A stretch of 64,000 nt of DNA from Dehalococcoidia bacterium (GCA_965237775.1 OZ250155.1:17084-81083); one strand, 5' to 3'. Counted from the first letter of the stretch, positions 38,644-61,940 are shown. Translations and numbers: made by a program. Notes: generated by a model not told the origin, from the sequence alone.

Positions 38644-38669
38644 GCCATAACCAACTGAAGAGGTGCATC

Positions 38670-39254: not shown

Positions 39255-39256
39255 AC

Positions 39257-45930: not shown

Positions 45931-45999
45931 CTCTTCTCCCGGTCACGCTCCAGGTAGTTGGAGTCGCTGACCCGCATCTATGCTAGGACCACGGCTGCG

Positions 46000-48804
46000 T
46001 TATGATCCGTAGTCCTCTTCCTCGTCGTCAGACCCCATGTCGTAGTCACCGTCATCGTCGTCACCACCGCCGCCGCTGCCACCGTTGTCCTCTTCCTCGT
46101 CGTCACCACCGCCGGACTCCTCATCCTCAAGGTCGTCGTCGTTCCCACTCCCGCCGGAGCCGGAGTCATCATCATCGTCTGCTCCTCCGCTAGCATCGCC
46201 TCCGGTGTCCTCCTCTTCGTCGTCACCACCACCACCGCCTCCGGCGTCCTCTTCCTCATCGTCCCCTCCGCCAGCATCGCCTCCGGTGTCCTCCTCTTCG
46301 TCATCCCCGCCGCCGGAGTCGTCATCGCCGGAGTCGTCGTCATCGTCGTCGTCGTACCCGTGACCGCCTCCCGAGCCAAAACTGGAGGAATCGCTGCTGG
46401 AGGAACTGCTGCTGGAAGAGCCTCCTCCGGCATCTTCCTCATCTTCGGTCTGGCCTCCAATGGTGCCCTCACCGGCTCCCCCGGAGCTGTCACCCGGAGG
46501 GTCAGCGGGGGTGGATCCGAACTCTCCCATCTCCTCCTGTAGCTGTTCCTCCATGCTGACTTGGGGGATGGCTTCCGGTTCCGGTTCCGGTTCGGGTTCG
46601 GGTTCGGGTTCGGGCGGTGGCGGGGGGTCATCATCACCGTTACCAGAGGGGGTCGCGGTGGTTCCTTCTCCAGGGGGGGTCGCGGTGGGTATATCGGGCG
46701 TCTCGGGGCCATTCGGTGGCTGGCCTTGCCCATCATCGTCGTCATCGTGAAACCCAGGGGTCTGTGGTGTCACCACCACGGCTCCCTGCGGTTGCTGCGC
46801 CACGGCTGCCGGAGGTAAAACTGGGGGCGTCACGACCGCCGGCTTAACCCCTACGTCCCCTTGAATGGACGCGAGAACCTCGACTTGTACATCAAGCTCC
46901 GCCGCAGTTTTGACCACTTCCTCGGTGTCGTCTTCAGCCTGCTCCAGCGCTTGCTCTGCTACTTGAGACAACTGCTGCGCCTGCTCGGCGTAATCGTCGG
47001 CTCGTTCCTGGGCCGCCTGCGCTACGGCTACATCACCCGAATCCTGGGCGGCCAGCGCCTCGTTCAAAGCGTCTTGAGCAAGAGTGCTGAGGTCTTGCGC
47101 CTGAGCCGACGCATCCACCGCGATCTGATGGGATTCGGCCACCTGATTGGTCAGCGCCTCGATACGCTCCGCCAGGTCCGAAATCTGAGTGGATACATGG
47201 GCTGCCTGGTCCGATAACGCCGCCAGTTCCCGAGCTTCATCCGCAGCCTGAATCGCATCCAGCGTGTCGTCTCCTGCCAGGGACTCGGCCCTCGCCGCCT
47301 CAGCCGCCTGTGTTGCAAGGTCAGAAATCGCTCGGGAATTGATTGCCGCTGCTGACGCCGCAATAGTGCTATCAACCACGATGCGAGCGGACTGGCTTAC
47401 CAACTGCGATGCTGCTTGGGCGTCATCACGAGTGGATTGGGCTGCTTCAGTGACGGTCTTAAAAGCCGCCTTCGCTTCGTCCGCAGACGCTTCCGCCGCG
47501 GTCTTCTTTTTGTCCTTTGGTTTCTCGGGGACCGGCACTACCCCCTTCTTCTTCTCTTTCGGTTTGACCATCGCAGGGGCGCTAGGCGTCCCGGTAGCGG
47601 CGACCCAACCACTCGCAGCCTCAAAGACTCCTGCTGGGTTGTAATACACCGCCCTCACCCGGACCTGGTAGGGGTCCGGCACCAAACCGGTAAGATTGTA
47701 AGCCTCGGTGTACACGTAAATCGGGGTTGCGGGAGTCCACTCCGTCCAGTCGGTGTCTCCGGTATCCGGGTTTTCTACGAGGAATTTGTACTGCATCTGG
47801 TAGACGTCGGTTGACGGGTTGAACGAGGCTGGCCGCACCCAGCCAATGAGTAGTTGTCCAGGGTTCAGGCCCGGGTACACCGCCAAGCTACCGGGCGCTT
47901 CGTAGGTCCTCGGCACTCCTGACGTGGGTGTGCCGTAGGCGTAGGCGTACAGGATGGGCGCGTCCACGTCCGGGTCTGCGTCGCCACAGACGGTCTTGGC
48001 TCTCACCTGGTGCCGCTCCGATCCCAATCCCTCCAGGATCAAACCGTTGCCGGTCACGGAGTATGGCGGCACGGGAAGCCAGCCGCTCCAGTGGTGTTCG
48101 CCGGTCTCGGGTATCTCGTGCTCGACCCGGTACTCCAGCTCGAAGTGGTCCTTGGCCGGGTCGAACCCCTCAGGGTCTGTCCATGTGGCCGAGAGTTGGC
48201 CGACGGTGCCAGTGGGCCTGGCCTGCATAGCGACGGGCGCCGGGCATGGCGCCACGGTCACGACCGGGGGCCGCGGGGTTACTCTTCCCGTAACCCACGG
48301 ACTCACCATCTCCACATTACCGTCTGCGTCGAAGCAGACTGTCCGCACTTGGATTTGGTGCTCTACGGTGGGAAGTCCGCGCACCGTGAAGCTCGTGCTG
48401 GTTGTCCGGGCTGCGGGATCGGGAGTCCAAGGGTCCCAATTCAGATCCCCGGTCTCCTGGTCTTCGGTGGCGCCCCGGTGCTGATACTCGAAGCTGTGTG
48501 TGTTCGGGTCGAAGCTCGGCGCCACCACCCAGGAAGACGTGAATCCGAACACCAATGCGGCCAGGCTGAGGTTTTCGGGAGGGTCGCATTGTGTGATAAC
48601 CGGCGCGCCAAGGGTCGCTCGTGCGTATACCTCCTCGCTCATGCCTTCTATATTGCCGTTGGAGTCGTAGCAAACGGTCCAAACCTTGAACAGGTAGGTG
48701 CCAGGGTCCATGCCAGTAAGGTGTTGGTCCGTGTCTCCAATGACCAGGGGAGTTTGGGGAATCCACTCGGTCCAATCCCCCGTTTCAGGGTCCCCTATTG
48801 CCAT
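46000..48804 (-). CDS. Giant-gene segment 3: FN3-like repeats, a coiled coil of about 250 aa, a Pro-rich region and a polyacidic Asp/Glu/Gly tail of about 190 aa
   Basis: The 934-aa ORF has recurrent FN3 signatures (FDPNTHSFEYQHR...ETGDLNWDPWTP; FDPAKDHFELEYR...ETGEHHWSGWLP; FNPSTDVYQMQYK...DTGDTDWTEWTP). An Ala/Gln/Glu-rich helix follows, then (PE)7, then a tail such as GGDDEEEDTGGDAGGGDDEEEDAGGG. Confidence 0.75.
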   Translation of the reverse strand: MAIGDPETGDWTEWIPQTPLVIGDTDQHLTGMDPGTYLFKVWTVCYDSNGNIEGMSEEVYARATLGAPVITQCDPPENLSLAALVFGFTSSWVVAPSFDPNTHSFEYQHRGATEDQETGDLNWDPWTPDPAARTTSTSFTVRGLPTVEHQIQVRTVCFDADGNVEMVSPWVTGRVTPRPPVVTVAPCPAPVAMQARPTGTVGQLSATWTDPEGFDPAKDHFELEYRVEHEIPETGEHHWSGWLPVPPYSVTGNGLILEGLGSERHQVRAKTVCGDADPDVDAPILYAYAYGTPTSGVPRTYEAPGSLAVYPGLNPGQLLIGWVRPASFNPSTDVYQMQYKFLVENPDTGDTDWTEWTPATPIYVYTEAYNLTGLVPDPYQVRVRAVYYNPAGVFEAASGWVAATGTPSAPAMVKPKEKKKGVVPVPEKPKDKKKTAAEASADEAKAAFKTVTEAAQSTRDDAQAASQLVSQSARIVVDSTIAASAAAINSRAISDLATQAAEAARAESLAGDDTLDAIQAADEARELAALSDQAAHVSTQISDLAERIEALTNQVAESHQIAVDASAQAQDLSTLAQDALNEALAAQDSGDVAVAQAAQERADDYAEQAQQLSQVAEQALEQAEDDTEEVVKTAAELDVQVEVLASIQGDVGVKPAVVTPPVLPPAAVAQQPQGAVVVTPQTPGFHDDDDDGQGQPPNGPETPDIPTATPPGEGTTATPSGNGDDDPPPPPEPEPEPEPEPEPEAIPQVSMEEQLQEEMGEFGSTPADPPGDSSGGAGEGTIGGQTEDEEDAGGGSSSSSSSSSDSSSFGSGGGHGYDDDDDDDSGDDDSGGGDDEEEDTGGDAGGGDDEEEDAGGGGGGDDEEEDTGGDASGGADDDDDSGSGGSGNDDDLEDEESGGGDDEEEDNGGSGGGGDDDDGDYDMGSDDEEEDYGS
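46573..46614. repeat. Hexanucleotide tandem repeat (ttccgg three times, ttcggg four times) encoding (PE)7
   Basis: The repeat is visible directly and lies within the giant-gene segment 46000..48804. Confidence 0.9.
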
Positions 48805-49451
48805 TGCGTACTCGAACAGGAACTGTGCTTGGAAGGGTCGAAGCCTTCAGGTTCATTGAAGGTGAGGACCAGCGTGCTGGGAGGCGAAACGGTGACCCCA
48901 AGGTTCTCGGGCGCGGGACAGGCATCGACAGTTGCAGGAGTTGCTGAGGCATCGACGGGAACGCTTCGGCAGACCTCAACACCCGCCTCATCGTGATAGA
49001 CCACCGCAACTCGAAACTCGTGGAGCACCGGGTCGAGCCCGTTGATGATGAGACCCTTACTGGTGACCACCCAGGATTCGACGGGCCACCAGGGCACTTC
49101 GTTCATCTCCTCGGCGACTGCATCCCATTCGATCTTCCTGGCCTGGACCTCGTAGTGGTGGCGTGCGGGGTCATGGTCTTCCGCATGGGTCCAGGCCAAT
49201 TGCAGTTGCCTAGCTTTCTTGGCGGGAAACGCCCGGAAGAACAGGGGTGCATGGAGCCTGGCCGTAAACTCTCCGGTGATGACACCGCTGTACAAGGGGT
49301 CGGTTCTCCAGGAGACATGCGACCTGGTGGCGACGCTGAACGTATAGGGAACGCAGGGGTCGAGGCCGTAGACCACTCCCGGAGGCACGGCGATAGTCTC
49401 TTCCTCTTGGGTATCGTCGTCCTGGTCTCGGTTGGTCTCCCAGAAAATCAC
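48795..49451 (-). CDS. Giant-gene segment 2: two FN3-like domains
   Basis: The 218-aa ORF ends with FDPSKHSSCSSTQWQ*. In the -1 frame the same DNA reads ...FLFEYAMAIGDPETGDWTEWIP, which completes the FN3 signature and runs into 46000..48804. Confidence 0.65.
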   Translation of the reverse strand: MIFWETNRDQDDDTQEEETIAVPPGVVYGLDPCVPYTFSVATRSHVSWRTDPLYSGVITGEFTARLHAPLFFRAFPAKKARQLQLAWTHAEDHDPARHHYEVQARKIEWDAVAEEMNEVPWWPVESWVVTSKGLIINGLDPVLHEFRVAVVYHDEAGVEVCRSVPVDASATPATVDACPAPENLGVTVSPPSTLVLTFNEPEGFDPSKHSSCSSTQWQ

Positions 49452-50401
49452 CCGGTAAGCCGAACCACTGGGCCGTTCGGAGGGGTGTCGAAGTCCACTA
49501 CGGCGGTGCCAGCGGCTCTGCCGGGCTTCAGGGTCAAGTTGCTGGGGTCGGGGATAAGACCCGTTAGGGTCAGGGTGAAATCGCCAGTCTCCTGTTCAAA
49601 CGTCGTCGCTTCGACTGTGTACATGCCCGGGTTCAGGTCGATGACCAGCCGGGAGTCGGTGAGTGAGCCACTGTCATCGTCGGACGCGATTATTGTTCCA
49701 GATTTACCGCGGCCTTCCAGAATGAAGACGTAGGGATTCTCTGCCGATTCCAGGTCCAGCCTAATCCGCGTCGGGTAGCTGAGCGAGAAGGCGAAATACC
49801 TGGCGTACATGCCAGAGCGGTTAACGGATAATAGGTCGGCACCATAGCTCCCTTCGCGGATCACCCGGTCACCCGCGTTCAGGACTCCAAGCCACTCGAT
49901 CTCATGGACGGGAGGCGCGTCGCCCGCGCCCGACACGTCCACCAGCACCGTTATCTCTTCGCCGGATTTCTCCGCGTTGGCCAGGGAGCGGCCGATGATG
50001 GGCTCATCGGCGGAGGTCGCTTTCTTGACCAGAGCAACGGGATGCCCCTTGAGAAACTTGGTCTCCATCGCGGGGGTCAAGGGGTCACCGATGGATACTG
50101 CTCCCGTTGCGCTGGCCTGCGCCAGACCCCGGACCACCAGTTGCACCGGGTCGTCTTTCCCGGTGCTCCGGTCGCCCAACGACTCGTCAGACTTGGTATG
50201 GACGATGCCGATGACGCGCCGAACGTCTACGCCCTCCTTCATTTTGAACAGCCGTGGCAAATTCAAAGAATTCGGGGCCTGCTGGATACCCAATACGTCT
50301 CCAGCAGCCAGAATCTCCCCTGCGCGGAAGTACTCGTCGATGATGATCCGGCGACCCTCAAACCCTTCACTTGTCAATACTGGTACTGGCACTTCTATCA
50401 C
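49448..50401 (-). CDS. Giant-gene segment 1: DUF2190-like beta-barrel, PPC (pre-peptidase C-terminal)-like domain, and the start of an FN3 domain
   Basis: The 317-aa ORF has a GTG start preceded by GAAGAAGAGG. Its N-terminal domain is paralogous to the C-terminal domains of the four protease genes (VPVLTSEGFEGRRIIIDEYFRAGEILAAGDVLGI...VIGIVHT...LVVRGLAQA...IGDPLTP...IIGRSL...ITVLVDV). The PPC-like part reads YFAFSLSYPTRIRLDLES...ASDDDSG...GMYTVEATTF...GDFTLTLTG. Confidence 0.7.
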   Translation of the reverse strand: MIEVPVPVLTSEGFEGRRIIIDEYFRAGEILAAGDVLGIQQAPNSLNLPRLFKMKEGVDVRRVIGIVHTKSDESLGDRSTGKDDPVQLVVRGLAQASATGAVSIGDPLTPAMETKFLKGHPVALVKKATSADEPIIGRSLANAEKSGEEITVLVDVSGAGDAPPVHEIEWLGVLNAGDRVIREGSYGADLLSVNRSGMYARYFAFSLSYPTRIRLDLESAENPYVFILEGRGKSGTIIASDDDSGSLTDSRLVIDLNPGMYTVEATTFEQETGDFTLTLTGLIPDPSNLTLKPGRAAGTAVVDFDTPPNGPVVRLTG

Positions 50402-50466
50402 CTCTTCTTCACCTGCCGGTCATAGAACCGGCTACCGAATCCGCTCCTTGGTATCTACAGTCTCAG

Positions 50467-51639
50467 CTATTGATTCCCTAGGCTTAGCGGGGTACCTGCT
50501 GCGTCTATTAGCAATTCGATATCCTGTCCAGGGCCCGTCGCGTTGGTGACGCTCCTTCCTAAGATCGGCTCATCTGTCCGAGTAGCTTTCTTGACTCTTG
50601 CGACGGGTTCTTTGTCCGGGTGTGCTTGAAGACTGCTATCCGGGGTCACTGGGTCTCCAACTCCTATGGGAGAGGCGGACATGCTCTTCGCCAGCCCGTG
50701 AACAACCACGGGTACCAAATGTGCCTTAGAGGCAATGAGGTCCCCTATAGCTTTATGGGCCGGAGTGTGGACGACCCCAATAACGCTATGAGACGCCGTT
50801 TTCCCGATGACCTTGAACACGGAGGGCTTGTTGGGCATGGATGGGTCCTCTCTGACGCCCACAACGTCCCCCGCGCTCAAGGGCTCTCCCGCGACGAAGT
50901 AGTCATTAACTATCACCCGCCGAGCACTAAGTGTGTCAGTGTGCCCTCGATAGCCGAACGTGATATCGAGTTCATGCTCAGCAACAGAAGCTGGCATTGC
51001 CCAGATTTCTCCTTTTTCGGGTATCCCGGCGAACGCAATGGCTGCTAATTGGTATACACCAGGAGCAGAAGCGTACAAGATTGGGGCTCCAGAATCGGTT
51101 TCTACCATTGGAGTTCCTAAGTCATCAACAACGACTACTCCCGTGTAAGCGACTTCTGCCGACTTTCCGGCGCCCCCAAACTGTGTATGAACGATCTCAC
51201 GTGATCCGGTTCGGAGGACTCGAACTGGTCTGACTCCAGTACCAACTCCCACCATGATCAAGGGCGTGTCTATTCCAGGTTCTTCTACCCCAGCGAGTAA
51301 CACTCCCAAGTCGTGGCCCTCGTTATGGATTTCATAGGAAGCGGTGATGCCCTCGTCCAGGGTGGCTATCCCGAAGTCCCCGATGTTGTCCTCCGTGGTT
51401 GACGCTGGAATCCAGTCGAAAATCATCCCCACACGGTTAGGGGATGACCCTACTGGCTGGAATAGCGGAGCAAGGTCATCCACATCCCACATCCCTGGGA
51501 CGCTCACCATTACATGAAGATTCGTGGTCAGAACCGGAGTTTGGTCTGAGTTCAGTGTTGCAATGGCGGTCAGAGTGCCACCATTGATGTTTGTGCCGGC
51601 CATTAGTGGCCTATGCGGCGTGTTTGGCTTAGCCATCAT
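50467..51639 (-). CDS. Cassette 1 protease: leaderless chymotrypsin-fold serine protease fused to a DUF2190-like C-terminal domain (390 aa)
   Basis: The N-terminus reads PHRPLMAG...GGTLTAIATL. The triad candidates are LTTNLHV (His), NIGDFGIATL (Asp) and ETDSGAPIL (Ser). The C-terminal domain reads AGDVVGV...VIGVVHTPA...LVPVVVHGLAKS...IGVGDPVTP...ILGRSV...IELLID. Confidence 0.75.
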   Translation of the reverse strand: MMAKPNTPHRPLMAGTNINGGTLTAIATLNSDQTPVLTTNLHVMVSVPGMWDVDDLAPLFQPVGSSPNRVGMIFDWIPASTTEDNIGDFGIATLDEGITASYEIHNEGHDLGVLLAGVEEPGIDTPLIMVGVGTGVRPVRVLRTGSREIVHTQFGGAGKSAEVAYTGVVVVDDLGTPMVETDSGAPILYASAPGVYQLAAIAFAGIPEKGEIWAMPASVAEHELDITFGYRGHTDTLSARRVIVNDYFVAGEPLSAGDVVGVREDPSMPNKPSVFKVIGKTASHSVIGVVHTPAHKAIGDLIASKAHLVPVVVHGLAKSMSASPIGVGDPVTPDSSLQAHPDKEPVARVKKATRTDEPILGRSVTNATGPGQDIELLIDAAGTPLSLGNQ

Positions 51640-51689
51640 CCAACTGCTCCTGACTCATGAGTTCGTCTAAGGAAACACATGTCGTCTCT

Positions 51690-52205
51690 TTAATAGTAGC
51701 GACCCATCGGTCTCTGGTGGATCTGTACCCTTACCCCGTCCAAGGTAGCAGGTACTCGTTGCTGCTCGGGTATCGAGCCATTGGAGACTTTCTCGGTGAC
51801 GGACAAAAGGATGCCGACTTCGTCCGAAAACTGCCCATCTCGGTCGTACAAGAACCAAACCGACAGCCCACTGGCATTAGGGTGGCTCAATAATCGAACT
51901 GCGTGCTTGTCCACGATAGGTTGAATTCTCTTTACATCTCTTCGGAAACGAAGCAGCTGGTCCGGGCTGAGTCTGTCCAGCTTGCTTGACATCGTTTCGA
52001 CCTGACTCGCATCATCGAAGAATTGGGCGTAAGAGGGGTCTCCACTTCCCTGGTCGAACTGATCCCGCTGACAGGCCAAAGTTACCGTCAGAACTGCTAG
52101 TGTCATCAACATAAACATGGTCCAGAGAACGGGCGGTAACCTCCTTCCTCGCACGATAGTCTGGATACCTTCAAACCCTTCGCTGGTCAGAACTGGGACC
52201 GTCAC
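51690..52205 (-). CDS. Cassette 1 lipoprotein with a pro-domain-like C-terminal block
   Basis: The signal and lipobox read MFMLMTLAVLTVTLAC|QRD. The C-terminal block reads HPNASGLSVWFLYDRDGQFSDEVGILLSVTEKV...RVPATLDGVRVQIHQRP. The first 12 codons (VPVLTSEGFEG) copy the DUF2190-domain junction motif. Confidence 0.65.
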   Translation of the reverse strand: MTVPVLTSEGFEGIQTIVRGRRLPPVLWTMFMLMTLAVLTVTLACQRDQFDQGSGDPSYAQFFDDASQVETMSSKLDRLSPDQLLRFRRDVKRIQPIVDKHAVRLLSHPNASGLSVWFLYDRDGQFSDEVGILLSVTEKVSNGSIPEQQRVPATLDGVRVQIHQRPMGRYY

Positions 52206-52272
52206 TTCTCTAACCTCTTCAGCCGCCGGTCATTAGCCGGCTTTGTTTCTAGGATTGAGTCTTGTTTTGGCT

Positions 52273-53496
52273 CTACCCTGCCGGCGGTGCGAATGTGGGC
52301 CCGGCGATGTCTACTATTACTTCGATTACCCGGCTGTCAGCGTCTTCTCCAGTTACCCCAGAAGAAACGCAACGGCCTACGATGGGCTCGCTTATGGAAG
52401 TAGCCGTCTTCACTCTGAACGGGGTATCGGTGTCTAGGTCCTTGCTGGGCATATCAGGGGTGACGGCATCCCCGGGTTCAACGTCGTTCGAGGCCCTCGT
52501 CTTGGCGATGCCCTGGACCACCACCGGAACGAGGGCCGTCGCCTTGGCAACCAAGTCCCCAACGCTTTTGGTCCGGGGCGTGTGGTCTATACCGATGAGC
52601 ATGTGCGGCGCGGTCTCCGAGTCCATCCTGAATAAAGCTGGGTCATCGTCCGACTCCGAGACGGGATTGATGCCTACGACGTCACCGGCCATCAGGTCCT
52701 CACCAGCTTTGAAGTAATCGTCGATGATGAACCTGCGCCCCAGAAATCCTTCTTGGTTGAGAAGTGGAAGACCCAGGTTCCGGGGGTTCCTCTCCAGAAG
52801 GATGGAGTTATCACCGAAGAAGAACTCCAGCTCGGATTCTGCAATATGAGCGGAAAGGCCAAAGCCGATGCCCAGGGCAAGATTGGAGGCAAATACAACT
52901 CCGCACATACGGAATATGCCGGGGCTGTCCTCATATAAGATCGGAGCACCGGAATCCCCACGCACCAATGGACGGTCGTGCGGCAGAACAATCATTACTG
53001 GATACCAGTCGTAACCCTGAAAAGAAAAACCTTGGTTGATGAAGAAAACAGTACCCCGTTGAACACCTGATATTGCTCCCAATATGTGAACGGTCATGCC
53101 CACTCGCGGTGGTATGGACGCGGAGACGATCATCCCTAGATCGTGGGCAGGATTGTGAGCCTCAAATTCAGCGTCTACTCCAGATTCCAGTTCCAACACC
53201 GCCAGGTCCACCGAGTTGGTTACGCCGACAGACACCGGAGCCGAATCGTACATCCGGGCCACTAGATGGTCCGCGATGTCCCGGTCATTTTGGTACATCT
53301 CTTCTGTACGAGTGCGGGCGAACGTAGCCACGGTCACTACGTGAAGGCAGGTGGCCAAGAGTGGGTTGTTGGTTCGCCTGCTGGTCCCTAGCCCGGACAA
53401 GGTTCCAAACGCATTCCTGGTACGAATGCCCGGCGTCTTGACCTCGACGTAGAGACCCGCCATGAGAGGACGGTGCCAAGATTGTCTTTCAGTCAT
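52273..53496 (-). CDS. Cassette 2 protease: leaderless chymotrypsin-fold serine protease fused to a DUF2190-like domain (407 aa)
   Basis: The N-terminus reads WHRPLMAG...FGTLSGL. The triad candidates are LATCLHVV, SVDLAVLEL and RGDSGAPIL. The junction motif reads LPLLNQEGFLGRRFIIDDYFKAGEDLMAGDVVGI, followed by LIGIDHTP, LVPVVVQGIAK and IVGRCV. Confidence 0.8.
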   Translation of the reverse strand: MTERQSWHRPLMAGLYVEVKTPGIRTRNAFGTLSGLGTSRRTNNPLLATCLHVVTVATFARTRTEEMYQNDRDIADHLVARMYDSAPVSVGVTNSVDLAVLELESGVDAEFEAHNPAHDLGMIVSASIPPRVGMTVHILGAISGVQRGTVFFINQGFSFQGYDWYPVMIVLPHDRPLVRGDSGAPILYEDSPGIFRMCGVVFASNLALGIGFGLSAHIAESELEFFFGDNSILLERNPRNLGLPLLNQEGFLGRRFIIDDYFKAGEDLMAGDVVGINPVSESDDDPALFRMDSETAPHMLIGIDHTPRTKSVGDLVAKATALVPVVVQGIAKTRASNDVEPGDAVTPDMPSKDLDTDTPFRVKTATSISEPIVGRCVSSGVTGEDADSRVIEVIVDIAGPTFAPPAG

Positions 53497-53525
53497 TGTG
53501 TGTCTGAATCCTCCTAAGGAACGGG

Positions 53526-54080
53526 TTATCCTGGAGAGTTCGCTGTGACGTTGAATTCAACGTCGTTCGGTACTTCGAGAATCTGGATTCTCACACCATC
53601 GATTGACTCAGGAATCCGGTCGATCTCAGGGAGGTCTTCCTGGAGGACCAATTGAGTGACCCAAATCACGATACCGATTTGTTCAGTGTATTCACCGTTT
53701 TGATCTTGCAGGAACCCTACGCCAACTGACCACATATTGGGTTGGCGTCGGAACAGGCCGGAATGCTTCTTGCGCACGGCGCTAGCCTTATCGGCCGCTG
53801 GCTGGTACTTGAGCCAACTGGGTTCTGATTCCGTCATCGAACTCCTCTCCGGTCGCTGATTCTTGGTGGAGGTAATCCGTTCGGTGGGGTCTTGGTCCTG
53901 GATAGCAGGCGCCAAGGGGACTTCGGCAGGTGCCTGGCCGCTCTCGGGCGATTCGGTACTACACGCCAGTAGCAGTAAGCACACCGAGGCCAGAACGATC
54001 AGTAGCCACCACCTTCCGATACTCAGTGTGGAATCCATCCTCTCCTCCTCCATTTGGGTCCCCGTCTTGTCTGGATACAC
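53526..54080 (-). CDS. Cassette 2 lipoprotein with a pro-domain-like C-terminal block
   Basis: The signal and lipobox read RWWLLIVLASVCLLLLAC|STE. The C-terminal block reads QPNMWSVGVGFLQDQNGEYTEQIGIVIWVTQLV...RIPESIDGVRIQILEVP. The start is probably an internal ATG such as 54038. Confidence 0.7.
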   Translation of the reverse strand: MYPDKTGTQMEEERMDSTLSIGRWWLLIVLASVCLLLLACSTESPESGQAPAEVPLAPAIQDQDPTERITSTKNQRPERSSMTESEPSWLKYQPAADKASAVRKKHSGLFRRQPNMWSVGVGFLQDQNGEYTEQIGIVIWVTQLVLQEDLPEIDRIPESIDGVRIQILEVPNDVEFNVTANSPG

Positions 54081-54139
54081 CGGAGTCAGCTAGGTCCGTC
54101 AGGGCAGCGCCTGTTTGAAACCTGGGCCGGCCTGTCGCC

Positions 54140-55387
54140 CTACGATTGGGATGGCGCGTGACCCGCGCCGGAGATGTCCACCAGCACGTCAATCACGCGG
54201 TTTTCCTTCTCCTCGTCTGCGCCACGAGCCGACACACAGCGGCCGATGATGGGGTCGTTGGCGGATCTGGCGGTCTTCACCCTGGACGGAGCGTCGGCAG
54301 CCAGTGGTTCCGTGGGCATCTCAGGGGTGACCGAGTCCCCAACTCCGATGTCGTCAGAGGCTCGCGCCTTGGCGATTCCGTGTACCACTACCGGCACAAG
54401 GTCGGGAGAGGAGGCAACGCGGTCCCCCACTTGCTTTCCTGCCGGAGTGTGGACTATGCCGATGAGCATGTGCGGCTCCATGTCCGAGTCCATCTTGAAT
54501 AGTGCGGGGTCATCGTCCGACTCTGAGACGGGATTGATGCCTACGACGTCACCGGCCATCAGGTCTTCACCTGCCTTGAAATGGTCGTCGATGATCAACT
54601 TTCTCCCGGCGAACCCTTCGCTGGTTAAGATTGGAATTCCTTCGTTGCCCACCCCGACCGTCGGGTCTCCGAAGGTGATGTCAAGCTCTTGTTCGATGAT
54701 GGAGGCTTTAACTGCGGCGCCGGTGGGCAATAGGGGGTGTTCAGTTACATGGAGTCCCACCATGTGGAATTCGCCGGGGGAGGACTCGAGAAGCAGAGGG
54801 GCTCCAGAATCACCCGGTTCAGATTCAGGGCTCCCATCAACCGGCCTTGTTATAAACACGTTATAAAAGATTTGGAGCCCCGGTGCTGTAACAAAGTGTG
54901 TTGCAACCACGACTACATTGGACGGCCCTGTGACGGCTCCCAGGCGTAAGAGCCGCATACGAGAAGTGGGTTCTCGAACGCCTGCCAATATCCTTCCAGG
55001 AGTGTGGTCATCCGGATTTCCTCCCAGGTGACGGTGCGGCACAAGACTTGGGGTTACCGAGTCCGACAGCGTTATCGCAGCAGCTTCAGCCTCATGAAGT
55101 GATACTGGCACCGGGCCGAGGTCTGCCGGAGTCCACCGGACAGGATTTCCGATTCTCTGGTTGGACCTCCGAGGTGTCCCTTGATGGACTTCTGCCTCCT
55201 TCGTAACGTCGAAGGAACCCGACTTAGCTACAACATGGGCAGCGGTCACAGCGACGCGTTCTCCACCAGGATGAAGAGTGGCAATTCCGGTGAGAGTCCC
55301 CGATTGAATAACCTCGGAATCTGGGTACTTGGAGTAGATCGCCAATCCTGCCATCAACTCCTCGTGCTCAAGACTTCTCCAGGGCAT
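54140..55387 (-). CDS. Cassette 3 protease: leaderless chymotrypsin-fold serine protease fused to a DUF2190-like domain (415 aa)
   Basis: I chose the ATG at 55387 (MPWRSLEHEELMAG...SGTLTGIATL). The motifs are VTAAHVV (His) and PGDSGAPLL (Ser); the Asp position is unclear (EAAAITL). The junction motif reads IPILTSEGFAGRKLIIDDHFKAGEDLMAGDVVGI. The N-terminal 78 codons of the 493-aa track ORF are an Arg/Trp-rich overprint of the upstream gene. Confidence 0.75.
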   Translation of the reverse strand: MPWRSLEHEELMAGLAIYSKYPDSEVIQSGTLTGIATLHPGGERVAVTAAHVVAKSGSFDVTKEAEVHQGTPRRSNQRIGNPVRWTPADLGPVPVSLHEAEAAAITLSDSVTPSLVPHRHLGGNPDDHTPGRILAGVREPTSRMRLLRLGAVTGPSNVVVVATHFVTAPGLQIFYNVFITRPVDGSPESEPGDSGAPLLLESSPGEFHMVGLHVTEHPLLPTGAAVKASIIEQELDITFGDPTVGVGNEGIPILTSEGFAGRKLIIDDHFKAGEDLMAGDVVGINPVSESDDDPALFKMDSDMEPHMLIGIVHTPAGKQVGDRVASSPDLVPVVVHGIAKARASDDIGVGDSVTPEMPTEPLAADAPSRVKTARSANDPIIGRCVSARGADEEKENRVIDVLVDISGAGHAPSQS

Positions 55388-55389
55388 GG

Positions 55390-55607
55390 CTACCTCCAGG
55401 GGTCGTGTTCGATGATCTGGACCTTGACCCCATCCAAGACTGCCGGGATTCGGTCTTCCGTCGGCAAAGTTTCTTGATCGACCTTCTCGGTGACGAATAT
55501 CAGAATTCCAACCTCTCCAACGTAGTTGCCGTTCTCGTCGACCAGCAACCCAACGGCACCACCGTTGAAGTTCGGCTGCCGACCAAAGAGTTGGAGGTGC
55601 CGCTCTA
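55390..55607 (-). pseudogene. Cassette 3 lipoprotein, 3' part (split by an IS427-group element)
   Basis: The reverse-strand translation reads ERHLQLFGRQPNFNGGAVGLLVDENGNYVGEVGILIFVTEKVDQETLPTEDRIPAVLDGVKVQIIEHDPWR*. It joins in frame to 56451..56690 when the IS and one TA are removed. Confidence 0.75.
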
Positions 55608-56450
55608 GGGCGTGTCGTCAAAACAGGAACAAGATGGTAGATTATTTCGGAGAGTGTGAGTGTGTGGAGTTGAAGTATGGCGGCAGCGCATCGGCGTCAC
55701 GACCTTTCGGACAAGGTTTGGGAACAATTGAGACCTTACTTGCCTGGTGGAGCAGGCAAAAGGGGGCGTCCAGCCCGGGATAACCGGCTTTTCTTGAACG
55801 CGGTGTTTTGGATCCTGCGTACTGGGGCGCCCTGGCGGGACCTGCCGCCGGATTACGGGGACTGGAAGAACACCCATAGACGCTTTTGCCGGTGGCGAGA
55901 CCGCGGTGTCTGGGACCAACTGCTGGAGCGGGTCATCGAAGATCCGGACTTTGAGTGGTTGATGGTCGACGCAAGCCACATCAAGGTTCACCCTCATGGC
56001 ACTGGGGCCCGGGGAGGCAATCAAGCCATAGGCCGCACAAAAGGGGGCTAAACAGCAAACTGCACCTGGCGGTGGACTCCCACGGCATGCCGGTACGTAT
56101 GATCTTGACCGAGGGTACGGTGGCGGATTGCACGCAGGCTCATTCGCTGATCGCCGACATCCCAGCTGAATATCTGCTGGCAGACCGAGGCTACCACACC
56201 AACGGCATCGTGGCCGAAGCCGAGGGCCAGGGGATGGAACCGGTGATACCACCCAGGAGCCATCGCAAGGAACAACGGTACTACGACCGGGCACTGTACA
56301 AACTGCGGCACTTGGTCGAGAACTCATTCCTGGACTTCAAGCAATGGCGGGGGGTTGCCACCCGATATGCCAAAAACGCAGCGTCTTTCCTGGCAATTTG
56401 CCAAATCCGAGCGCTGGTCATCTGGACCAAGTTATTTTGACGACACCCCC
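55608..56450 (+). mobile_element. IS5-family (IS427-group) insertion sequence, 843 bp
   Basis: The terminal inverted repeats are GGGCGTGTCGTCAAAA (55608-) and ttttgacgacaccccc (-56450). A TA direct repeat flanks the element at 55606-55607 and 56451-56452. It carries two overlapping transposase ORFs. Confidence 0.85.
55677..56440 (+). CDS. IS427-group transposase, orfA (55677..56051) and orfB (to 56440), joined by a -1 frameshift at A4G5 (56039-56047)
   Basis: OrfA reads HDLSDKVWEQLRPYLPG...RDNRLFLNAVFWILRTGAPWRDLP. Slipping -1 on A-AAA-GGG-G gives ...AIGRTKGGLNSKLHLAVDSHG, then LLADRGY and LRHLVENSFLDFKQWRGVATRYAK. Confidence 0.85.
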
Positions 56451-56690
56451 TAATACTGCTACCGCGCGTTCCTCTGTTTTCTTGTGATACCCAGGGTATG
56501 GCTCGGTAGGGATGGGAGAGTTAGGGTTGATGCCCATTTTGGAACCTCCTGTCTCTGCTGTTGGCTCAACATTTTCCAGGGTTGAATCTGGCTTGCTAGA
56601 GTCGTTGGGCTCCTTCGAGCAACCCAAAGCCGGTAAGAGCAGAAGTATCACCACGACGAACGCGAGAGGTATCCCCCGAATCTTCAACAT
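56451..56690 (-). pseudogene. Cassette 3 lipoprotein, 5' part
   Basis: It reads MLKIRGIPLAFVVVILLLLPALGC|SKEPNDSS...YHKKTEERAVAVL. The track ORF 56418..56690 then reads into the IS end. Confidence 0.75.
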
Positions 56691-56795
56691 TGTTCCCTCT
56701 CTTTCTGATTTGAACCCTCCCCTCTTGGTTCGGACCCGCTTGCAAAGGCCGGTCGGTCAACATCACCTTACCTTGAAATCAGGAGTATGTTGTTG

Positions 56796-57365
56796 CTACT
56801 GCCGGGATGGGGTATGGCCTGCATCCGCGATGTCCACCAGCACTTCAATGTCTTGGTCGGCGCCGGGGGTCACCGTAAGGCACCGGCCCACAATCAGGTC
56901 AGTGCTGGCAGTAGCGGTCTCCACCCGAGAAACGGTCGCGGAATCGTTGTGCTCGTAGGGGGTCACGCTGTCACCCACGCCGATGGCCGCGGCGGACTTG
57001 GCTTTCGCTACCCCCTGGATCACGATGGGGACCAGTTGACCATCCGACGCAATATCATCCCCGACCGACTTCGCCGACGGGGTATGGACTATGCCGATGA
57101 CCCGCCAGTCGTCCATCGTTGAGGTCATCTTGTAGACCTTCGGATCGCTGCCATCCGCCTTGATGCCTACCACGTCGCCAGCCAGGAGCTCTTCCCCGGC
57201 GGTGAAGTAGTCATCGACGATCAACCGTTGTCCTACGAAACCTTCGCTGGTTAGAATCGGAATTCCCATCTCTGCTTCACTCCTTGCAAAACTGACATTG
57301 AGAGCCTTTTCGATTACCGTTGCGGTGGAGACGCAAGCGGTCTCGCCCGAGTCTCCCCACACCAT
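56796..57365 (-). CDS. Cassette 4 remnant: intact DUF2190-like domain preceded by only the tail of a protease domain
   Basis: The 189-aa ORF starts MVWGDSGETACVSTATVIEKALNVSFA, which parallels GDSGAP...ELDITFG of the full copies. It continues MGIPILTSEGFVGQRLIVDDYF...VIGIVHTPS...LVPIVIQGVAKA...IVGRCL...IEVLVDI. No His or Asp region is present. Confidence 0.55.
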   Translation of the reverse strand: MVWGDSGETACVSTATVIEKALNVSFARSEAEMGIPILTSEGFVGQRLIVDDYFTAGEELLAGDVVGIKADGSDPKVYKMTSTMDDWRVIGIVHTPSAKSVGDDIASDGQLVPIVIQGVAKAKSAAAIGVGDSVTPYEHNDSATVSRVETATASTDLIVGRCLTVTPGADQDIEVLVDIADAGHTPSRQ

Positions 57366-57637
57366 CCCAGTTCCGCCGCCTCCATGACCGTCAACCCTGG
57401 GGTCATTCGCCGGTGTGCCTGGCCCATCGCAGACAGGAGCCGGGGGACACTACCTTCCTGGACATCGACGCGGATACCGTCGATGGTGCGCGGCACTAAA
57501 CCAAAGCCAAGGTGGAATCTACATTTGTGGGGCGATGAAGATTGACTTGGGTGCCCAGGGAAGCTCTTGCTCCTGTGTCTGGAGAGCGATCCGGTGCCGC
57601 CGATTGACTTCCTCCATACGCGTATTTCACCTTGGTA

Positions 57638-57874
57638 TTAGTTTAGGTCCTCGGTGGCCAGGCCGGACTCAGGGACCTCTTGGCTAACGAGGACTTGCAG
57701 GCCGGTCTCGCCGGTCTTGTGACCGGCCTCGTAGACTAAGCCCACGCCGACGCCAACGACGTCCTCCCTGGAAAGGAGATCGGCGGCGTGCCGGGCCTTG
57801 AAGCCGCGGACTTCAGAGATATGTGGAGAAACTGCGGCCAAGTCGATTACTCCTCCATTCTTGCTTGTAACCAC
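57638..57874 (-). pseudogene. Cassette 4 pro-domain-like fragment without a signal peptide
   Basis: The 78-aa ORF reads ...LLSREDVVGVGVGLVYEAGHKTGETGLQVLVSQEVPE and ends prematurely. The expected continuation (PRTIDGIRVDVQEGS) lies downstream in ORF 57314..57496. Confidence 0.5.
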
Positions 57875-57875
57875 C

Positions 57876-59648
57876 CTAGCCGACTAACTGGGATCGACTC
57901 TGGAATATGGTCTGCTCATACAGGAGGAGAGCGTGATACCATTCCAGGCTGGCCTCTGGGTGTTCAGTCAAATACCATTGGTCAACGTGCTGCTCGTCCG
58001 GGCCGGTTGACAAGGCGAGAATCCCATCGATGAGTTGGTTACACCAAGTATTTTCTTGAGCCACGTACGGGTCGCCGTTATCGTCTAACCGGAATCGGCC
58101 TGGCATACCACCGGCACACCAAGGCGAATAGTAGTCCCGGATATCCCCATGCCCGTCGCCCCTAGTTCGGCCGTTCCAATCGAACTGGAGAGCCAGTAAT
58201 TTGTCCATCCAGTAATCGATCCTGGGCCTCACCCAGTCCATGCCTTCTTGATTGCCGATGAATTTGCAATATTGCCAATACATGCAGCCAACTTCGACCA
58301 CTCGGACTACCCAGTCTGAATACCAAGGAGACGATTGAGGGCACACTACTGGCGGATTACGCCATACGAGATTCGCGGAGTCGAAAACGGGGGAAGTCAC
58401 GTTTATTGAGCCAGCCGCAATGTTGTTCTGGATCGTGAGCGAGTCCTTCCCTTCAAAGCACTCCTCAAGAAAAAGCCGACAAATCTCGATGCCGGAACCA
58501 GTATTAGGACCCGCCCACCATGGCTTCTCGTCTCCATATGCGATCAAGGCCGTTGCTGCCGCCTGAGTCTTTGAGTTTACGGACCAAGGGAATCCGACTT
58601 GGGAATATCGTTGCCGATTACCCTCGCCAGCAGCTCTCGAGATATGCGGAGTCCATGCAAAAATGTTAGCGTTCGCCGAGTTGCGGATCGTGTCTGGCCA
58701 TAAGTCATTCTCAAGGAACATCTCAGGTGTTATCGGCCACCAGGTCTCCCAAGAGAACTCAGCGCCCTCAAAAAACTCTCGGCGCAACAAACCGAATGTT
58801 TGCTCGTATAAGTCGTGCTTACTCTTCAGAAATTCCTTAGCAGCATTCATGACCTTGACGCCGTTGGTGATGTCTTCTCCAGTGCCGAGTTCGCGGAGTA
58901 CGTACCCTGCGATCCAGTTCAGATCAAGCATCGCGAACTCGTTCCAGGACCAAAACTCACCAGGTCCCATATCTTGCTCGCGGCAACGAATTCTCCAAAG
59001 AAGGGTCTTGGGATTACCTGCAACGAGGAGGCGGTCCGGGAGCCAAAGGAGATTCATTTCACCTGCAGAGTCAAGACTCTCGTACCAGATGAAAGCCTCA
59101 CTTTCCCCATCCGAGTAGTCGCTCCCACCCCATCGGACTTCATTTATGAATTTCACGGTGTGATAGGTCTCGTATGTCACCGATTCACGGCCGGAGATCG
59201 GGAACGGCCAACCCGAAGGCAGGGTGGGGAAATCGGTAACCACCTTCGAATTTGGGTCCCGGAAACTGACCGCTGTCTCGTAACGCTGCCAACTATAATT
59301 CGGAAGGCTGTCTCCGAACTCTATTTCCGATGAACCAAGGTGTGCATGGGCCATCCGATTAAAGTGGAAGATTCGATAATCTCCCTTCAGGAGCACCTGG
59401 TCATACTCCACTCCCTCAGAGTCGAGTCGACTTTGAGAACTGGGACGTTCGCCAGTATTCGGTATTAGGCCAACAACAGGCGGATACTTCCCAGTGGTGA
59501 ACATCCGCCAACGGTCTTCACCATTCGGAGCGTAGGCGATGGGAGGAGATAGCTCCTCCTGATTAGCGGCCAAGGGTTTACTTACGCAGCGGCGAATGAA
59601 CGCGGCGGACAGTTTCTTAGCCTTGTCCAGTTGCTCTCGGGTTGGCAT
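57876..59648 (-). CDS. Trp-rich 590-aa protein of unknown function (AT-richer patch)
   Basis: This long ORF has no competing frame and no signal peptide. I recognised no motif. An alpha/alpha-toroid-type enzyme is only a guess, based on W/Y/F-rich composition. Confidence 0.55.
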   Translation of the reverse strand: MPTREQLDKAKKLSAAFIRRCVSKPLAANQEELSPPIAYAPNGEDRWRMFTTGKYPPVVGLIPNTGERPSSQSRLDSEGVEYDQVLLKGDYRIFHFNRMAHAHLGSSEIEFGDSLPNYSWQRYETAVSFRDPNSKVVTDFPTLPSGWPFPISGRESVTYETYHTVKFINEVRWGGSDYSDGESEAFIWYESLDSAGEMNLLWLPDRLLVAGNPKTLLWRIRCREQDMGPGEFWSWNEFAMLDLNWIAGYVLRELGTGEDITNGVKVMNAAKEFLKSKHDLYEQTFGLLRREFFEGAEFSWETWWPITPEMFLENDLWPDTIRNSANANIFAWTPHISRAAGEGNRQRYSQVGFPWSVNSKTQAAATALIAYGDEKPWWAGPNTGSGIEICRLFLEECFEGKDSLTIQNNIAAGSINVTSPVFDSANLVWRNPPVVCPQSSPWYSDWVVRVVEVGCMYWQYCKFIGNQEGMDWVRPRIDYWMDKLLALQFDWNGRTRGDGHGDIRDYYSPWCAGGMPGRFRLDDNGDPYVAQENTWCNQLIDGILALSTGPDEQHVDQWYLTEHPEASLEWYHALLLYEQTIFQSRSQLVG

Positions 59649-59676: not shown

Positions 59677-60084
59677 TTGAGGTTCGAAATGGGGTCGGAT
59701 GCAGAGGAAGCGGGCCCAATTCCAGTGATTCCGTTCGCGATTATGCTGATCGCGCCGATTCTGGTCGGATTCGTGATGGCAGCCATTTTCATGGTGGACG
59801 CGGGATTCTCCTTGAGGGTGACCTCGGAAGGCGCATTCTCTCTCCTGCTGTTCTCCCTGTATTCTCTATTGGGGATATTCACCCTCTACCTGTTTATGGG
59901 CCTTTTGTCTTTCTTCATGGTGAGCGTAGCGTTTGCCCTTATGAATCCAGCGCCAATGCCGGCGTTCAATGCCGCATTGTGGGTCGTGGCGTTTTTCGCC
60001 GTCGTCTTTTGGTTGTTCGTTCTCTTCCTCATTCTTCTTGGGTCGTCAGGACATTCCTCAATGCCTTACGGGGCCGGAGGGTAG
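59677..60084 (+). CDS. Small integral membrane protein (four predicted TM helices)
   Basis: The 135-aa ORF has hydrophobic stretches IPFAIMLIAPILVGFVMAAIFMV, FSLLLFSLYSLLGIFTLYLFMGLLSFFMV and AALWVVAFFAVVFWLFVLFLILL. It is the only plus-strand native gene in the structural region, and its stop abuts IS copy C. Confidence 0.55.
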   Translation: MRFEMGSDAEEAGPIPVIPFAIMLIAPILVGFVMAAIFMVDAGFSLRVTSEGAFSLLLFSLYSLLGIFTLYLFMGLLSFFMVSVAFALMNPAPMPAFNAALWVVAFFAVVFWLFVLFLILLGSSGHSSMPYGAGG

Positions 60085-61940
60085 CCTAGAAGTCTGGCCG
60101 GAAACTGTCCATTTTGATGCCAGGGGTTATACTCCGGGGTATCAAAGATAGCGGAGCAAGGGAATGCTGGGAGAGCGATCGGATCAGAGGGGCTTCTGGG
60201 AGGCGGACCGGCTGTATCTGGACCACGTGGGTAAGGACACTTTCTACGGCCTGTTGGCATCGTTGAGAGGCCAACTATTCCGGGACTCCGACTTCGCCGA
60301 GTTCTACTGCGCCGACAACGGCCGGGACAGCGTGCCGCCCAGCCTGCTGGCCACGGCGCTGCTGCTGCAGACCCACGACAAGGTGAGCGACGCCGAGGCC
60401 AAGGCCAGAGCCGACTTCGACATCCGCTGGAAAGTGGCGTTGGGAATTGAGGTGGAGGACAGGCCCTTCGCCAAGAGCACGCTCCAGGTGTTCCGCGCCC
60501 AGTTGATTCTCCACGACAAGGTGCGGGCGGTGTTCGAGTCCAGCCTGCGGCTGGCCCGGGAGTCGGGCTACCTAAAAAAGCGCGGCATGCGGGTGGCGCT
60601 GGACACCACGAACATCCTGGGGCGGGGCGCCGTGAGGGACACCTTCAACCTGCTGGCGGACGGGATTGTGAAGCTGCTGCGGGCGCTGGCAGCCGTGGAG
60701 AGGTCCAATGTCAAAGGATGGGCCGAGGCCCAGGGGTACGGGCGGTACCTTGCATCCAGCATCAAGGGAGAGTCGGCCATCGACTGGTCCGACAAGGGGG
60801 CACGGGCGGGGTTGCTGGCCACGATTGTGGCTGACGCCGACCGTCTGTTGGAAGCAGGGCGGCAGGCGCAGGAGGCTCTGCCGGAGGGCAGCCCTGAGCG
60901 GCAGGGCATCGTCGCGGCGGCGGAGTTGCTGGGGCAGTTGCTGCTCCAGGATGTGGAGCGCACCGGCGACGGTATTGGTCTCAAGGACGGGGTGAGCAAG
61001 GACCGGATGGTGTCGGTGCATGACCCGGAGATGCGCCACGGCCACAAGAGCAGCAGCCGTCGCTTCGACGGGCACAAGGCGGCGATTGTGGTGGACACCG
61101 ATACCCAGCTCATTACTGCTGTGGAAGTATTGCCCGGCAACGCTCCGGACAACCTGGGGGCCTTGGAACTGGTGGAACGGAGCGAGGCCAATACCGGTGT
61201 GCCGGTGGAGGAGGCGCTGGGCGATGCCGCTTATGGCGACGGCGATACCAGGCAGGCCTTCGCCGACGCGGGACGGACCCTGATTGCCCGGGTGCCGGGC
61301 CGTCCGAACCGGAAACACTTCCCGAAGGATGACTTCCGGATTGACCTGGCGGCGGGAACCTGCACCTGTCCGGCGGGTCAGGTCACCCGGAAGCTGCTGC
61401 CGGCGGGGAAGCGGACCGGTTCCACGGGACGGACTCACCGGCTGCAAGCCTTCCGGTTCGATGCGGCGGTGTGCGGAGCCTGCCCGCTGCGCTCTCAATG
61501 CGTGGCCGGGTCATCGGGATTGGGGCGAACGGTCCAACTGCACCCGCAGGAGGCTTTGTTGCAGCAGGCCCGGGCCCTGCAGCAGAGCGAAGCCTTTGCC
61601 GGGTATTGTCAACGCCGGGTGGTGGTGGAGCACCGGCTGGCCCGGCTGGTGCAGCTGGGGATTCGCCAGGCCCGCTACTTCGGTCGGACCAAAACCCGGT
61701 TCCAGCTGTACCTGGCAGCCACGGTGGCCAACCTGACCCTGCTGGCGGGCAAAACCGGTTTGACAGGCGATATTGGTGGCGCTGCCATCGGCTACCGTGA
61801 CGCCTGGGCCGGCGCCGACAGTGCTACAGCAACATTTGGTGCAATCCGGCTCGGTCTGATTTGGCCGCTGGCGTTGCTGACGCCGGCCTTTCTGCCTAAA
61901 GCCCTCTTCTCAACCAAGGCTTTTCATCCGCATTTCTAGG
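60085..61940 (+). mobile_element. IS1182/IS5-superfamily insertion sequence, copy C, 1856 bp
   Basis: It has the same ends and internal ORFs as copies A and B. It is inserted between the convergent genes 59677..60084 and 61936..63165. Confidence 0.9.
60164..61939 (+). CDS. IS1182/IS5-like DDE transposase (591 aa)
   Basis: Its translation is identical to those of the other two copies. Confidence 0.9.
   Translation: MLGERSDQRGFWEADRLYLDHVGKDTFYGLLASLRGQLFRDSDFAEFYCADNGRDSVPPSLLATALLLQTHDKVSDAEAKARADFDIRWKVALGIEVEDRPFAKSTLQVFRAQLILHDKVRAVFESSLRLARESGYLKKRGMRVALDTTNILGRGAVRDTFNLLADGIVKLLRALAAVERSNVKGWAEAQGYGRYLASSIKGESAIDWSDKGARAGLLATIVADADRLLEAGRQAQEALPEGSPERQGIVAAAELLGQLLLQDVERTGDGIGLKDGVSKDRMVSVHDPEMRHGHKSSSRRFDGHKAAIVVDTDTQLITAVEVLPGNAPDNLGALELVERSEANTGVPVEEALGDAAYGDGDTRQAFADAGRTLIARVPGRPNRKHFPKDDFRIDLAAGTCTCPAGQVTRKLLPAGKRTGSTGRTHRLQAFRFDAAVCGACPLRSQCVAGSSGLGRTVQLHPQEALLQQARALQQSEAFAGYCQRRVVVEHRLARLVQLGIRQARYFGRTKTRFQLYLAATVANLTLLAGKTGLTGDIGGAAIGYRDAWAGADSATATFGAIRLGLIWPLALLTPAFLPKALFSTKAFHPHF

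Follow-up and report, generated by a model that had tools for sequence, protein, structure and literature searches.

A stretch of 64,000 nucleotides from a Dehalococcoidia bacterium (GCA_965237775.1, OZ250155.1:17084-81083; here called the window, with positions counted from its first letter) contains a tandem array of related genes between 49.4 and 57.9 kb on the minus strand. Three types of domain make up the array: S, the C-terminal block of the small open reading frames (ORFs); P, the protease; and C, the C-terminal domain of the large ORFs. Hidden Markov models (HMMs) of S, P and C were built in this analysis, and a six-frame search of the window with them identified four S, three P and five C domains, together with a fragment of C, 22 residues long, where the small ORF of unit 1 (U1) begins. 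The E values, 1e-25 to 1e-91 overall and 1e-57 to 1e-91 for the domains in the large ORFs, exclude chance. An earlier note, made from the sequence, had described four consecutive units (U1-U4) that each pair a small lipoprotein-like ORF with a large protease-like one. Every ORF it listed was recovered at the same coordinates and on the same strand, as were its four C-bearing units, but a fifth C-domain, in 49448-50401, had been missed.

In U1, a small ORF (S1, 51690-52205), in which a leader ending in LTVTLAC is followed by a NAL1_N-type domain, precedes a leaderless large ORF (50467-51639, 390 aa) encoding the protease (approximately 50935-51639) and a cement-like C-domain (50467-50934). U2 follows the same plan, with a lipoprotein leader ending in LLLAC and a NAL1_N-type domain in the small ORF (S2, 53526-54080, for which the database gene call, P0009, begins 14 codons further downstream and gives 170 aa) and a leaderless protease with a C-domain in the large one (52273-53496, 407 aa). 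The small ORF of U3 is split into a 5′ part (56451-56690), encoding a leader ending in PALGC and a linker, and a 3′ part (55390-55605) encoding the NAL1_N-type domain; its large ORF (54140-55387, 415 aa), again a leaderless protease with a C-domain, encodes the protein used for modelling. The three large ORFs align with one another over their full length. U4 consists of a leaderless S remnant (57638-57874), continued by a frameshifted stretch and the stub of a deleted protease (57314-57874 in all), and of a stand-alone C protein of 189 aa (56796-57365), which begins with a GDSG remnant of the deleted protease and aligns with the last ~165 residues of the three large ORFs. The same region aligns with the first 165 residues of a 317-aa protein (49448-50401), in which the fifth C copy is N-terminal and is followed by a further C-terminal domain, a layout like that of head fibers. 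All of these genes are on the minus strand, and the motifs quoted in the earlier note (LTTNLHV, LATCLHVV or VTAAHVV; TDSGAP or GDSGAP; HRPLMAG; VIGIVHT; and the conserved small-ORF block) were present. The spacers between S and P in the window are 2, 29 and 50 nt. Programmed frameshifting or read-through linking S to P was ruled out on the basis of these spacers and of the U2 large-ORF frame, which is closed immediately ahead of the ATG.

The split in the U3 small ORF had been attributed to an insertion sequence (IS). Indeed, an 845-bp IS5-like element occupies 55606-56450; its ends are inverted and a TA has been duplicated, and removal of the element together with one TA restored an uninterrupted ORF of 150 aa. 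U4 had been regarded as decayed, and its S part is additionally frameshifted in the window, but the decay is not purely local. The arrangement in which a stand-alone C comes after a short S without a leader recurs in three (L002, L003 and L024) of 27 related loci annotated with the S, P and C HMMs, and C proteins of the U4 type (189-192 aa) recur as P0013 and P0015; U4 is thus an old deletion derivative. A further rearrangement marks the U1 small ORF, which starts VPVLTSEGFEG: its initial 13 codons reproduce the opening strand of the C-domain encoded by the 317-aa gene (52155-52220 versus 50342-50407, 77 % identity over 66 nt). The duplication by which cassette U1 was inserted probably had its junction at this shared start.

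The large ORFs had been proposed to encode leaderless serine proteases of the chymotrypsin fold. They start 6-8 residues ahead of the conserved HRPLMAG motif, which leaves no space for a leader. A phmmer search of PDB sequences with the U3 protein matched nothing, and among the paralogues U3 alone matched Pfam Trypsin_2, at 15.4 bits under a gathering cut-off of 27.6. An AlphaFold2 model of U3, generated from 51 aligned relatives, had a predicted local distance difference test score (pLDDT) of 78, with residues 245-264 forming a low-confidence linker. Foldseek comparison of this model with the PDB returned E values of 2e-8 to 1e-7 and target template-modelling (TM) scores of up to 0.79, the matches being Lysobacter proteases L5 and L1, the proteases of S. 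griseus (SGPB) and S. fradiae, NAPase, alpha-lytic protease and the rice protein NARROW LEAF 1 (NAL1); when the whole model was searched against BFVD, viral proteases crowded out all else. In the U3 model P is a double beta-barrel of the chymotrypsin fold (clan PA), and the proposed fold was borne out by these matches and by the His, Asp and Ser motifs. In 22 family members aligned by HMM, the positions of the His (TAAHV-like), the Asp (D followed by hydrophobic residues) and the Ser (GDSG) are conserved, with GDSD in locus L008. Judged from sequence, the three P paralogues are probably active as serine proteases. Among the paralogues P is ~28-32 % identical, whereas C is 41-64 % identical, as is usual where a conserved anchor carries a diversified head.

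The model of C by itself had a pLDDT of 83 and a predicted TM score (pTM) of 0.81. Its best 36 PDB matches were phage capsid or head-fiber entries, the sole exception being a fragment of the phi29 tail appendage gp12 at rank 34 (gp12 recurs at rank 37). Pam3 was the best match (8hdt_G; E 4e-5, TM 0.59), and further matches included the N base of the phi29 head fiber gp8.5, FCWL1, T1, HFTV1, Borrelia BB1, XM1, E217 and TW1; lambda gpD and YSD1 came far lower, at E values of about 1. The targets were mostly 119-171 aa long, which suits decoration rather than coat proteins, the role of each chain in the capsid entries being judged by length. At the sequence level, all C copies weakly matched phrog_673, and the C profile reached phi29 gp8.5 among PDB sequences at E 0.2. 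Within Pfam, PF22758 (Phage_cement) matched 3 of 51 C-family members (best E 2e-4, near or below threshold), and PF09956 (Phage_cement_2 in the Pfam copy used, which we take to be the accession of the former DUF2190) matched a single member weakly (E 0.015 to 0.12); the precomputed Pfam annotation of the database matches of the family consisted of tail domains or of nothing. The DUF2190-like character claimed for C therefore held at the level of fold, which by the model is that of capsid cement and head-fiber-base proteins, and not as formal Pfam membership, which is not established.

A profile search with the C family recovered 47 relatives, mostly stand-alone proteins of 154-196 aa. In the others, an N-terminal C is followed by collagen repeats, PKD/Ig, FN3 or His-rich segments, or by 680-1600 extra residues, and this layout of C with a C-terminal tail is that of head fibers and Ig-bearing decoration proteins. 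Many members (P0007, P0025, P0029, P0031 and P0036, among others) have their last strand replaced or followed by a His-rich HNHS/HSHS segment, sometimes with collagen repeats after it; these segments may bind metal. From the modelled fold and these layouts, C would dock its passenger (protease, FN3/PKD, collagen or His-rich tail) on the exterior of the virion, most likely on the capsid. phrog_673 bears the PHROG label 'head scaffolding protein', and a role of the proteins as prohead protease or scaffold was considered; it was ruled out because relatives have a separate Peptidase_S78_2 beside the capsid gene and because the fold is that of cement.

The products of the small ORFs of U1-U3 start with a hydrophobic segment whose last residues are a lipobox-like LAC or LGC, in agreement with the signal peptide and lipobox proposed earlier; U4 S has no leader. 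Identified by regular expression, the basis throughout, the lipobox pattern was also present in 16 of the 36 S-bearing ORFs of the related loci and in about a third of the database representatives. The S blocks of the window gave a sub-threshold match to NAL1_N (Pfam, E about 0.1) and a weak one to the N-terminal part of a 'protease' in PHROG. When 1.84 billion representatives were searched with a profile, 1092 S matches were returned at E <= 1e-3, and NAL1_N was matched by 106 of the top 147 (best 64.7 bits, E 6e-18, for a cut-off of 27), so that S of the window is homologous to NAL1_N by transitivity. Against the PDB, the S profile reached NAL1 with an E no better than about 1 and aligned with its residues ~113-157. 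These belong to the module (residues 89-172) named the ATP-binding domain by the crystallographers of NAL1, which lies ahead of the protease domain and interfaces with it, and the domain homologous to S is a permanent part of that enzyme (PMC12012508). The Pfam family Nal1_C was matched by no window protein and by one S representative (E 7e-4).

Leaderless S-P and S-P-PKD fusions were present among the representatives (P0103, P0109, P0182, P0205 and P0125), and their P part is homologous to U1-U3 (blastp E 1e-27 to 1e-8). In P0205, S runs straight into HRPILPAL, the exact point at which the window genes are split. Since relatives fuse S directly before the HRPLMAG start, S occupies the position of a pro-region. 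The earlier description of the small ORFs as pro-domain-like was therefore upheld for position, but not for family: the alpha-lytic prodomain family was matched by none of the window S ORFs in Pfam and was absent from the best 25 of the 73 families found among the 147 representatives. On this sequence homology, S is a NAL1_N domain, the protease's own N-terminal domain detached onto a separate lipoprotein. In the S lipoproteins the N/pro-domain of a protease has been turned into a protein exported on its own, which is a simple way in which a cognate inhibitor or activator could evolve, and through the 1092 profile matches the plant protease NAL1 gains numerous relatives among prokaryotes and viruses.

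The pairing of a lipoprotein with a protease-C neighbor, for which a genome survey had been suggested, recurs in ~14 of the related loci that were fetched, 12 of them Dehalococcoidia metagenome-assembled genomes (MAGs), in one to three copies and in prophage-like surroundings. A scan of species-representative genomes located 17 loci, all 17 in Dehalococcoidia MAGs, and a tblastn search of 50,697 phage records with U1 gave no match. S with P-C is present once in L001, twice in L024 and L025 and three times in the window. Other loci combine the same domains differently. L014 (8798-10516) and L015 (8798-11305) encode single chains of 572 and 835 aa, respectively, in which a signal-anchor is followed by S, P and C; L017 has a P without C and then a stand-alone C; and L027 encodes leaderless S-P-PKD proteins. 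In many loci S-lipoprotein genes outnumber the proteases, two to four S domains stand in tandem on one lipoprotein, and leaderless S-P fusions, which already have an S of their own, sit among S-lipoprotein genes. Protease stubs of ~70 aa, extending from the N-terminus to just past the His motif, each follow an S-lipoprotein gene in L012 and L027 (for example L027:7095-7310 and 12397-12609) and look like displaced, orphan-like modules; those in L021 were detected as tblastn matches alone. L027, in which S and S-P genes abound, also encodes two 188-aa proteins with a BsuPI (intracellular proteinase inhibitor) domain at 12692-14059, and P0079 (L027:3741-5558) combines a weak BsuPI match with S domains.

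The building blocks of the cassette are of known kinds; what the databases and papers searched did not yield is their combination, a tandem series of diversified, cement-anchored proteases that are each accompanied by their own N/pro-domain as an exported copy. As the earlier note had supposed, the cassette appears not to have been described: neither the curated families of Pfam, NCBIfam, PADLOC and PHROGs (by function) nor any publication found describes it, and NCBIfam gave no meaningful match for the window proteins. A known anti-phage defense system was ruled out, as PADLOC models gave no match to eight proteins. The fold of C is common to cement proteins and head-fiber bases (Pam3 gp6, E217 gp24 of PF22758, phi29 gp8.5, TW1, T1 and XM1), and phi29 gp8.5, SPP1 gp12 and Hoc follow the same logic of an anchor with an outward passenger as the C relatives bearing collagen, PKD or FN3. 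Unlike these proteins, the array carries an enzyme as passenger, attaches it N-terminally, provides five C paralogues per phage and lies among tail-module genes. Capsid decoration proteins stabilize capsids or carry adhesion domains. The words 'protease' and 'catalytic' are never used in a 2020 review of decoration proteins. A natural fusion of a decoration anchor to an enzyme, in several diversified copies, would, if true, add catalysis to the capabilities of the phage head surface and offer a natural scaffold for enzyme display. P-C would also resemble the virion-associated lysins and depolymerases, particle-borne enzymes that breach host barriers (PMC6116005). The known virion-associated enzymes are located in the tail or inside the capsid and act on polysaccharide or peptidoglycan, and 'protease' is absent from the review that covers them (PMC6116005).

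Rice NAL1 shares with the cassette an S of the NAL1_N family, a protease domain close to P in fold and the order of S followed by P. Unlike NAL1, the window has S and P as separate genes with S on a lipoprotein, a cement domain in place of the NAL1 C-terminal region, and a prokaryotic virus as its setting; ATP binding and the hexameric cage (a trimer of dimers) are known from NAL1 itself. The alpha-lytic/SGPB pre-pro-proteases (MEROPS S1E) are the best structural matches of P, and their pre-pro-mature order is that of the L014 and L015 fusions. Unlike in S1E, S of the window has no prodomain-family match, and the mature enzyme is leaderless while the 'pro' part alone is exported. The cassettes also recall the phage lipoproteins paired with virion proteins, T5 Llp with the receptor-binding protein pb5 and TP-J34 Ltp, in that a small lipoprotein gene adjoins that of a related virion protein and a protective or exclusion role is proposed. 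These lipoproteins have no homology to S and are directed at a host receptor or the tape measure, in contrast to S, a paralogue of the N-domain of the protease, which would be directed at the virion enzyme itself. Like polymorphic toxin-immunity arrays, the cassettes are diversified in tandem, have a surplus of partner genes and stubs of truncated enzymes, and bear scars of recombination. They differ in that the partner gene precedes the enzyme and the anchor is a virion domain, not a secretion-system carrier.

The explanation favored for the whole, put forward tentatively, is that the array is the virion-decoration module of a prophage, temperate and siphovirus-like, in a Dehalococcoidia host, and encodes virion-displayed proteases together with cognate exported S lipoproteins that act as inhibitors or decoys. 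P-C is made leaderless, with the flexible linker joining P to C; C would anchor P on the virion surface, and a particle would display up to three different proteases alongside the FN3 and fiber proteins. S would be exported by Sec and lipid-anchored. Since it duplicates, in detached form, a domain normally carried by the protease, S should bind its cognate P, and because S is exported and lipid-anchored and P-C is not, contact would be made only outside the cell, after lysis or at infection. S would there serve as a surface-anchored specific inhibitor or decoy that shields the producer or lysogen and its kin, or excludes superinfecting particles, and the displayed proteases would help particles to cut through a proteinaceous barrier. 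From gene content, S appears more likely to be an inhibitor or immunity decoy than a trans-acting foldase, given that S genes outnumber P, that some S lipoproteins are multi-headed, that S stands beside proteases already having S in cis, and that orphan-like stubs occur as in immunity arrays; the BsuPI-domain genes near the S and S-P genes of L027 were counted towards the same conclusion. Domain identities, fused and split states, conservation of the catalytic residues, gene context and variation in copy number are shown by the sequences; virion display, binding of S to P, the inhibitory direction and the substrate are all putative.

A more specific form of this explanation is rather doubtful. 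In it the array is a polymorphic 'key-and-shield' system: diversified capsid-displayed proteases would cut host or environmental protein barriers, such as the S-layer of peptidoglycan-poor Dehalococcoidia, the matching N/pro-domain lipoproteins would shield the producer and kin or exclude rivals, and recombination would turn the cassettes over as in toxin-immunity modules. To our knowledge, almost nothing has been reported on phages facing protein-walled hosts such as Dehalococcoidia, and the system could bear on their dealings with such hosts.

Several points weigh against the inhibitor or decoy explanation. We infer each of its elements, namely binding of S to P, virion incorporation and proteolytic activity, and with S exported and P-C leaderless their meeting is limited to lysis or infection. 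In U3 a Glu replaces the catalytic Asp, and in U1 and its L024 orthologue the Ser motif is TDSG, with Thr for the first Gly of GDSG. The S genes lie in a late operon with no promoter signal above background, and their expression in the lysogen is putative; the prophage has been damaged by IS elements and is possibly defective. The observation that fits least is the signal-anchored S-P-C of L014 and L015, in which P and C would be outside before a capsid is available and which has the look of a classical secreted pre-pro-protease. That same pre-pro-enzyme layout is what would be expected if activation were gated by compartment, with S serving as a trans pro-region (foldase or activator), as in alpha-lytic protease, and the leaderless P unfolded or inactive in the cytoplasm during virion assembly, maturing only once lysis brings it to the S lipoprotein on the outer membrane face. 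The alpha-lytic/SGPB family depends on a pro-region able to work in trans, and its members are the best structural neighbors of P. Furthermore, S takes the pro-region position ahead of the PLMAG (IVGG-like) start of P, precisely the point at which the two genes part, and in the window they are paired one to one across tight gaps of 2-50 nt. However, the Pfam scans matched no S sequence to the alpha-lytic prodomain family, the homologous domain of NAL1 stays permanently in the enzyme (PMC12012508), and a foldase would need neither the abundant S lipoproteins beside leaderless S-P fusions nor more S copies than P; the tandem proteins with two to four S domains resemble multi-headed binders instead. 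Gated activation has solid points in its favor but is on balance improbable.

The position of the genes, in the tail module and not beside the major capsid gene, means that the docking site of P-C could instead be the tail. The proteases would then be depolymerase-like enzymes on the tail side, with C bound to the tube or neck and the logic of display unchanged. The array indeed lies between the tail-tube and the chaperone/tape-measure genes, FN3 proteins follow it, and one of these (45262-45930) starts with the N-arm-like ILLTSESFTGQ; yet the structural neighbors of C are capsid-bound or head-fiber bases, apart from the phi29 gp12 appendage noted above, and docking to the tail is judged unlikely. 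Slightly less credit still is given to a role in lysis and egress, in which P-C and S would form a two-part protease degrading the host S-layer from within in the manner of an endolysin, with C merely oligomerizing. Cultured Dehalococcoidia lack peptidoglycan and have S-layers, leaderless and signal-anchored versions both occur, mirroring the logic of holin-dependent and signal-arrest-release (SAR) endolysins, and no Pfam or PHROG endolysin was present in the prophage parts examined, an absence that rests on partial inspection of each prophage. Against such a role, the genes lie between those of the tube and the tape measure with fiber-like C proteins and outside any lysis cassette, the fold of C specifically matches virion-surface proteins, and three diversified paralogues are unexpected of a lysis enzyme. 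That the array is non-functional debris of a decaying prophage would account for the two IS insertions in the module, the frameshifted U4 S, the disrupted U3 S and the recombination scar of U1 S. This is very improbable in view of the three long intact P-C ORFs, the catalytic residues conserved across 22 relatives, the conservation of the cassette across many MAGs and the recent and precise IS insertion in the U3 small ORF.

The array was placed by the earlier note within a phage tail operon, and it does lie between the tail-tube (Phage_tube_2, 61936-63165) and tape-measure (42493-44172) genes of an IS-riddled prophage. The order on the minus strand is tail tube, a 1.86-kb IS, a 590-aa ORF, U4, U3, U2, U1, the 317-aa C-fiber protein, three FN3-rich proteins, small ORFs and tape measure, with an ImmA/IrrE-helix-turn-helix (HTH) regulator and an integrase further downstream. 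A scan for promoters and terminators gave no signal above the shuffled background. The Trp-rich 590-aa ORF (57876-59648, minus strand) had no match in Pfam, PHROG, NCBIfam or PADLOC; L024 and L025 have, at the equivalent position, a large ORF (547 aa) that is also unannotated, the two being compared by position.

The FN3-rich proteins downstream of the array (218, 934 and 222 aa; 45262-49451, minus strand) are putative virion-surface or fiber proteins. The ILLTSESFTGQ start of the 222-aa protein (45262-45930) resembles the N-arm of the C family, PILTSEGFxGQ, with the rest of the C-domain missing, and could be a docking peptide common to both or a place where recombination occurs. The 934-aa protein (46000-48804) contains FN3-like repeats, an Ala/Gln-rich coiled-coil-like stretch and a PE repeat, matches no family, and ends in an extremely acidic Asp/Glu/Gly-rich tail of ~200 aa.

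At the lysogeny end of the prophage (34071-40363), where no endolysin was recognized, are the integrase (34071-35285), a 163-aa ORF that appears PIN/VapC-like by eye (36624-37115) and the HTH-ImmA/IrrE fusion (39257-40363). A 91-aa coiled-coil protein with a C-terminal transmembrane segment is encoded at 40624-40899. The IS of ~1.86 kb, which encodes a 591-aa DDE transposase (DDE_Tnp_1_6/DUF772), is present in three copies of 100 % identity, at 20834-22690 (minus strand), 23433-25288 (plus strand) and 60084-61940 (plus strand). The last of these sits right after the stop codon of the tail-tube gene, and the other two are inverted relative to each other and ~740 bp apart.

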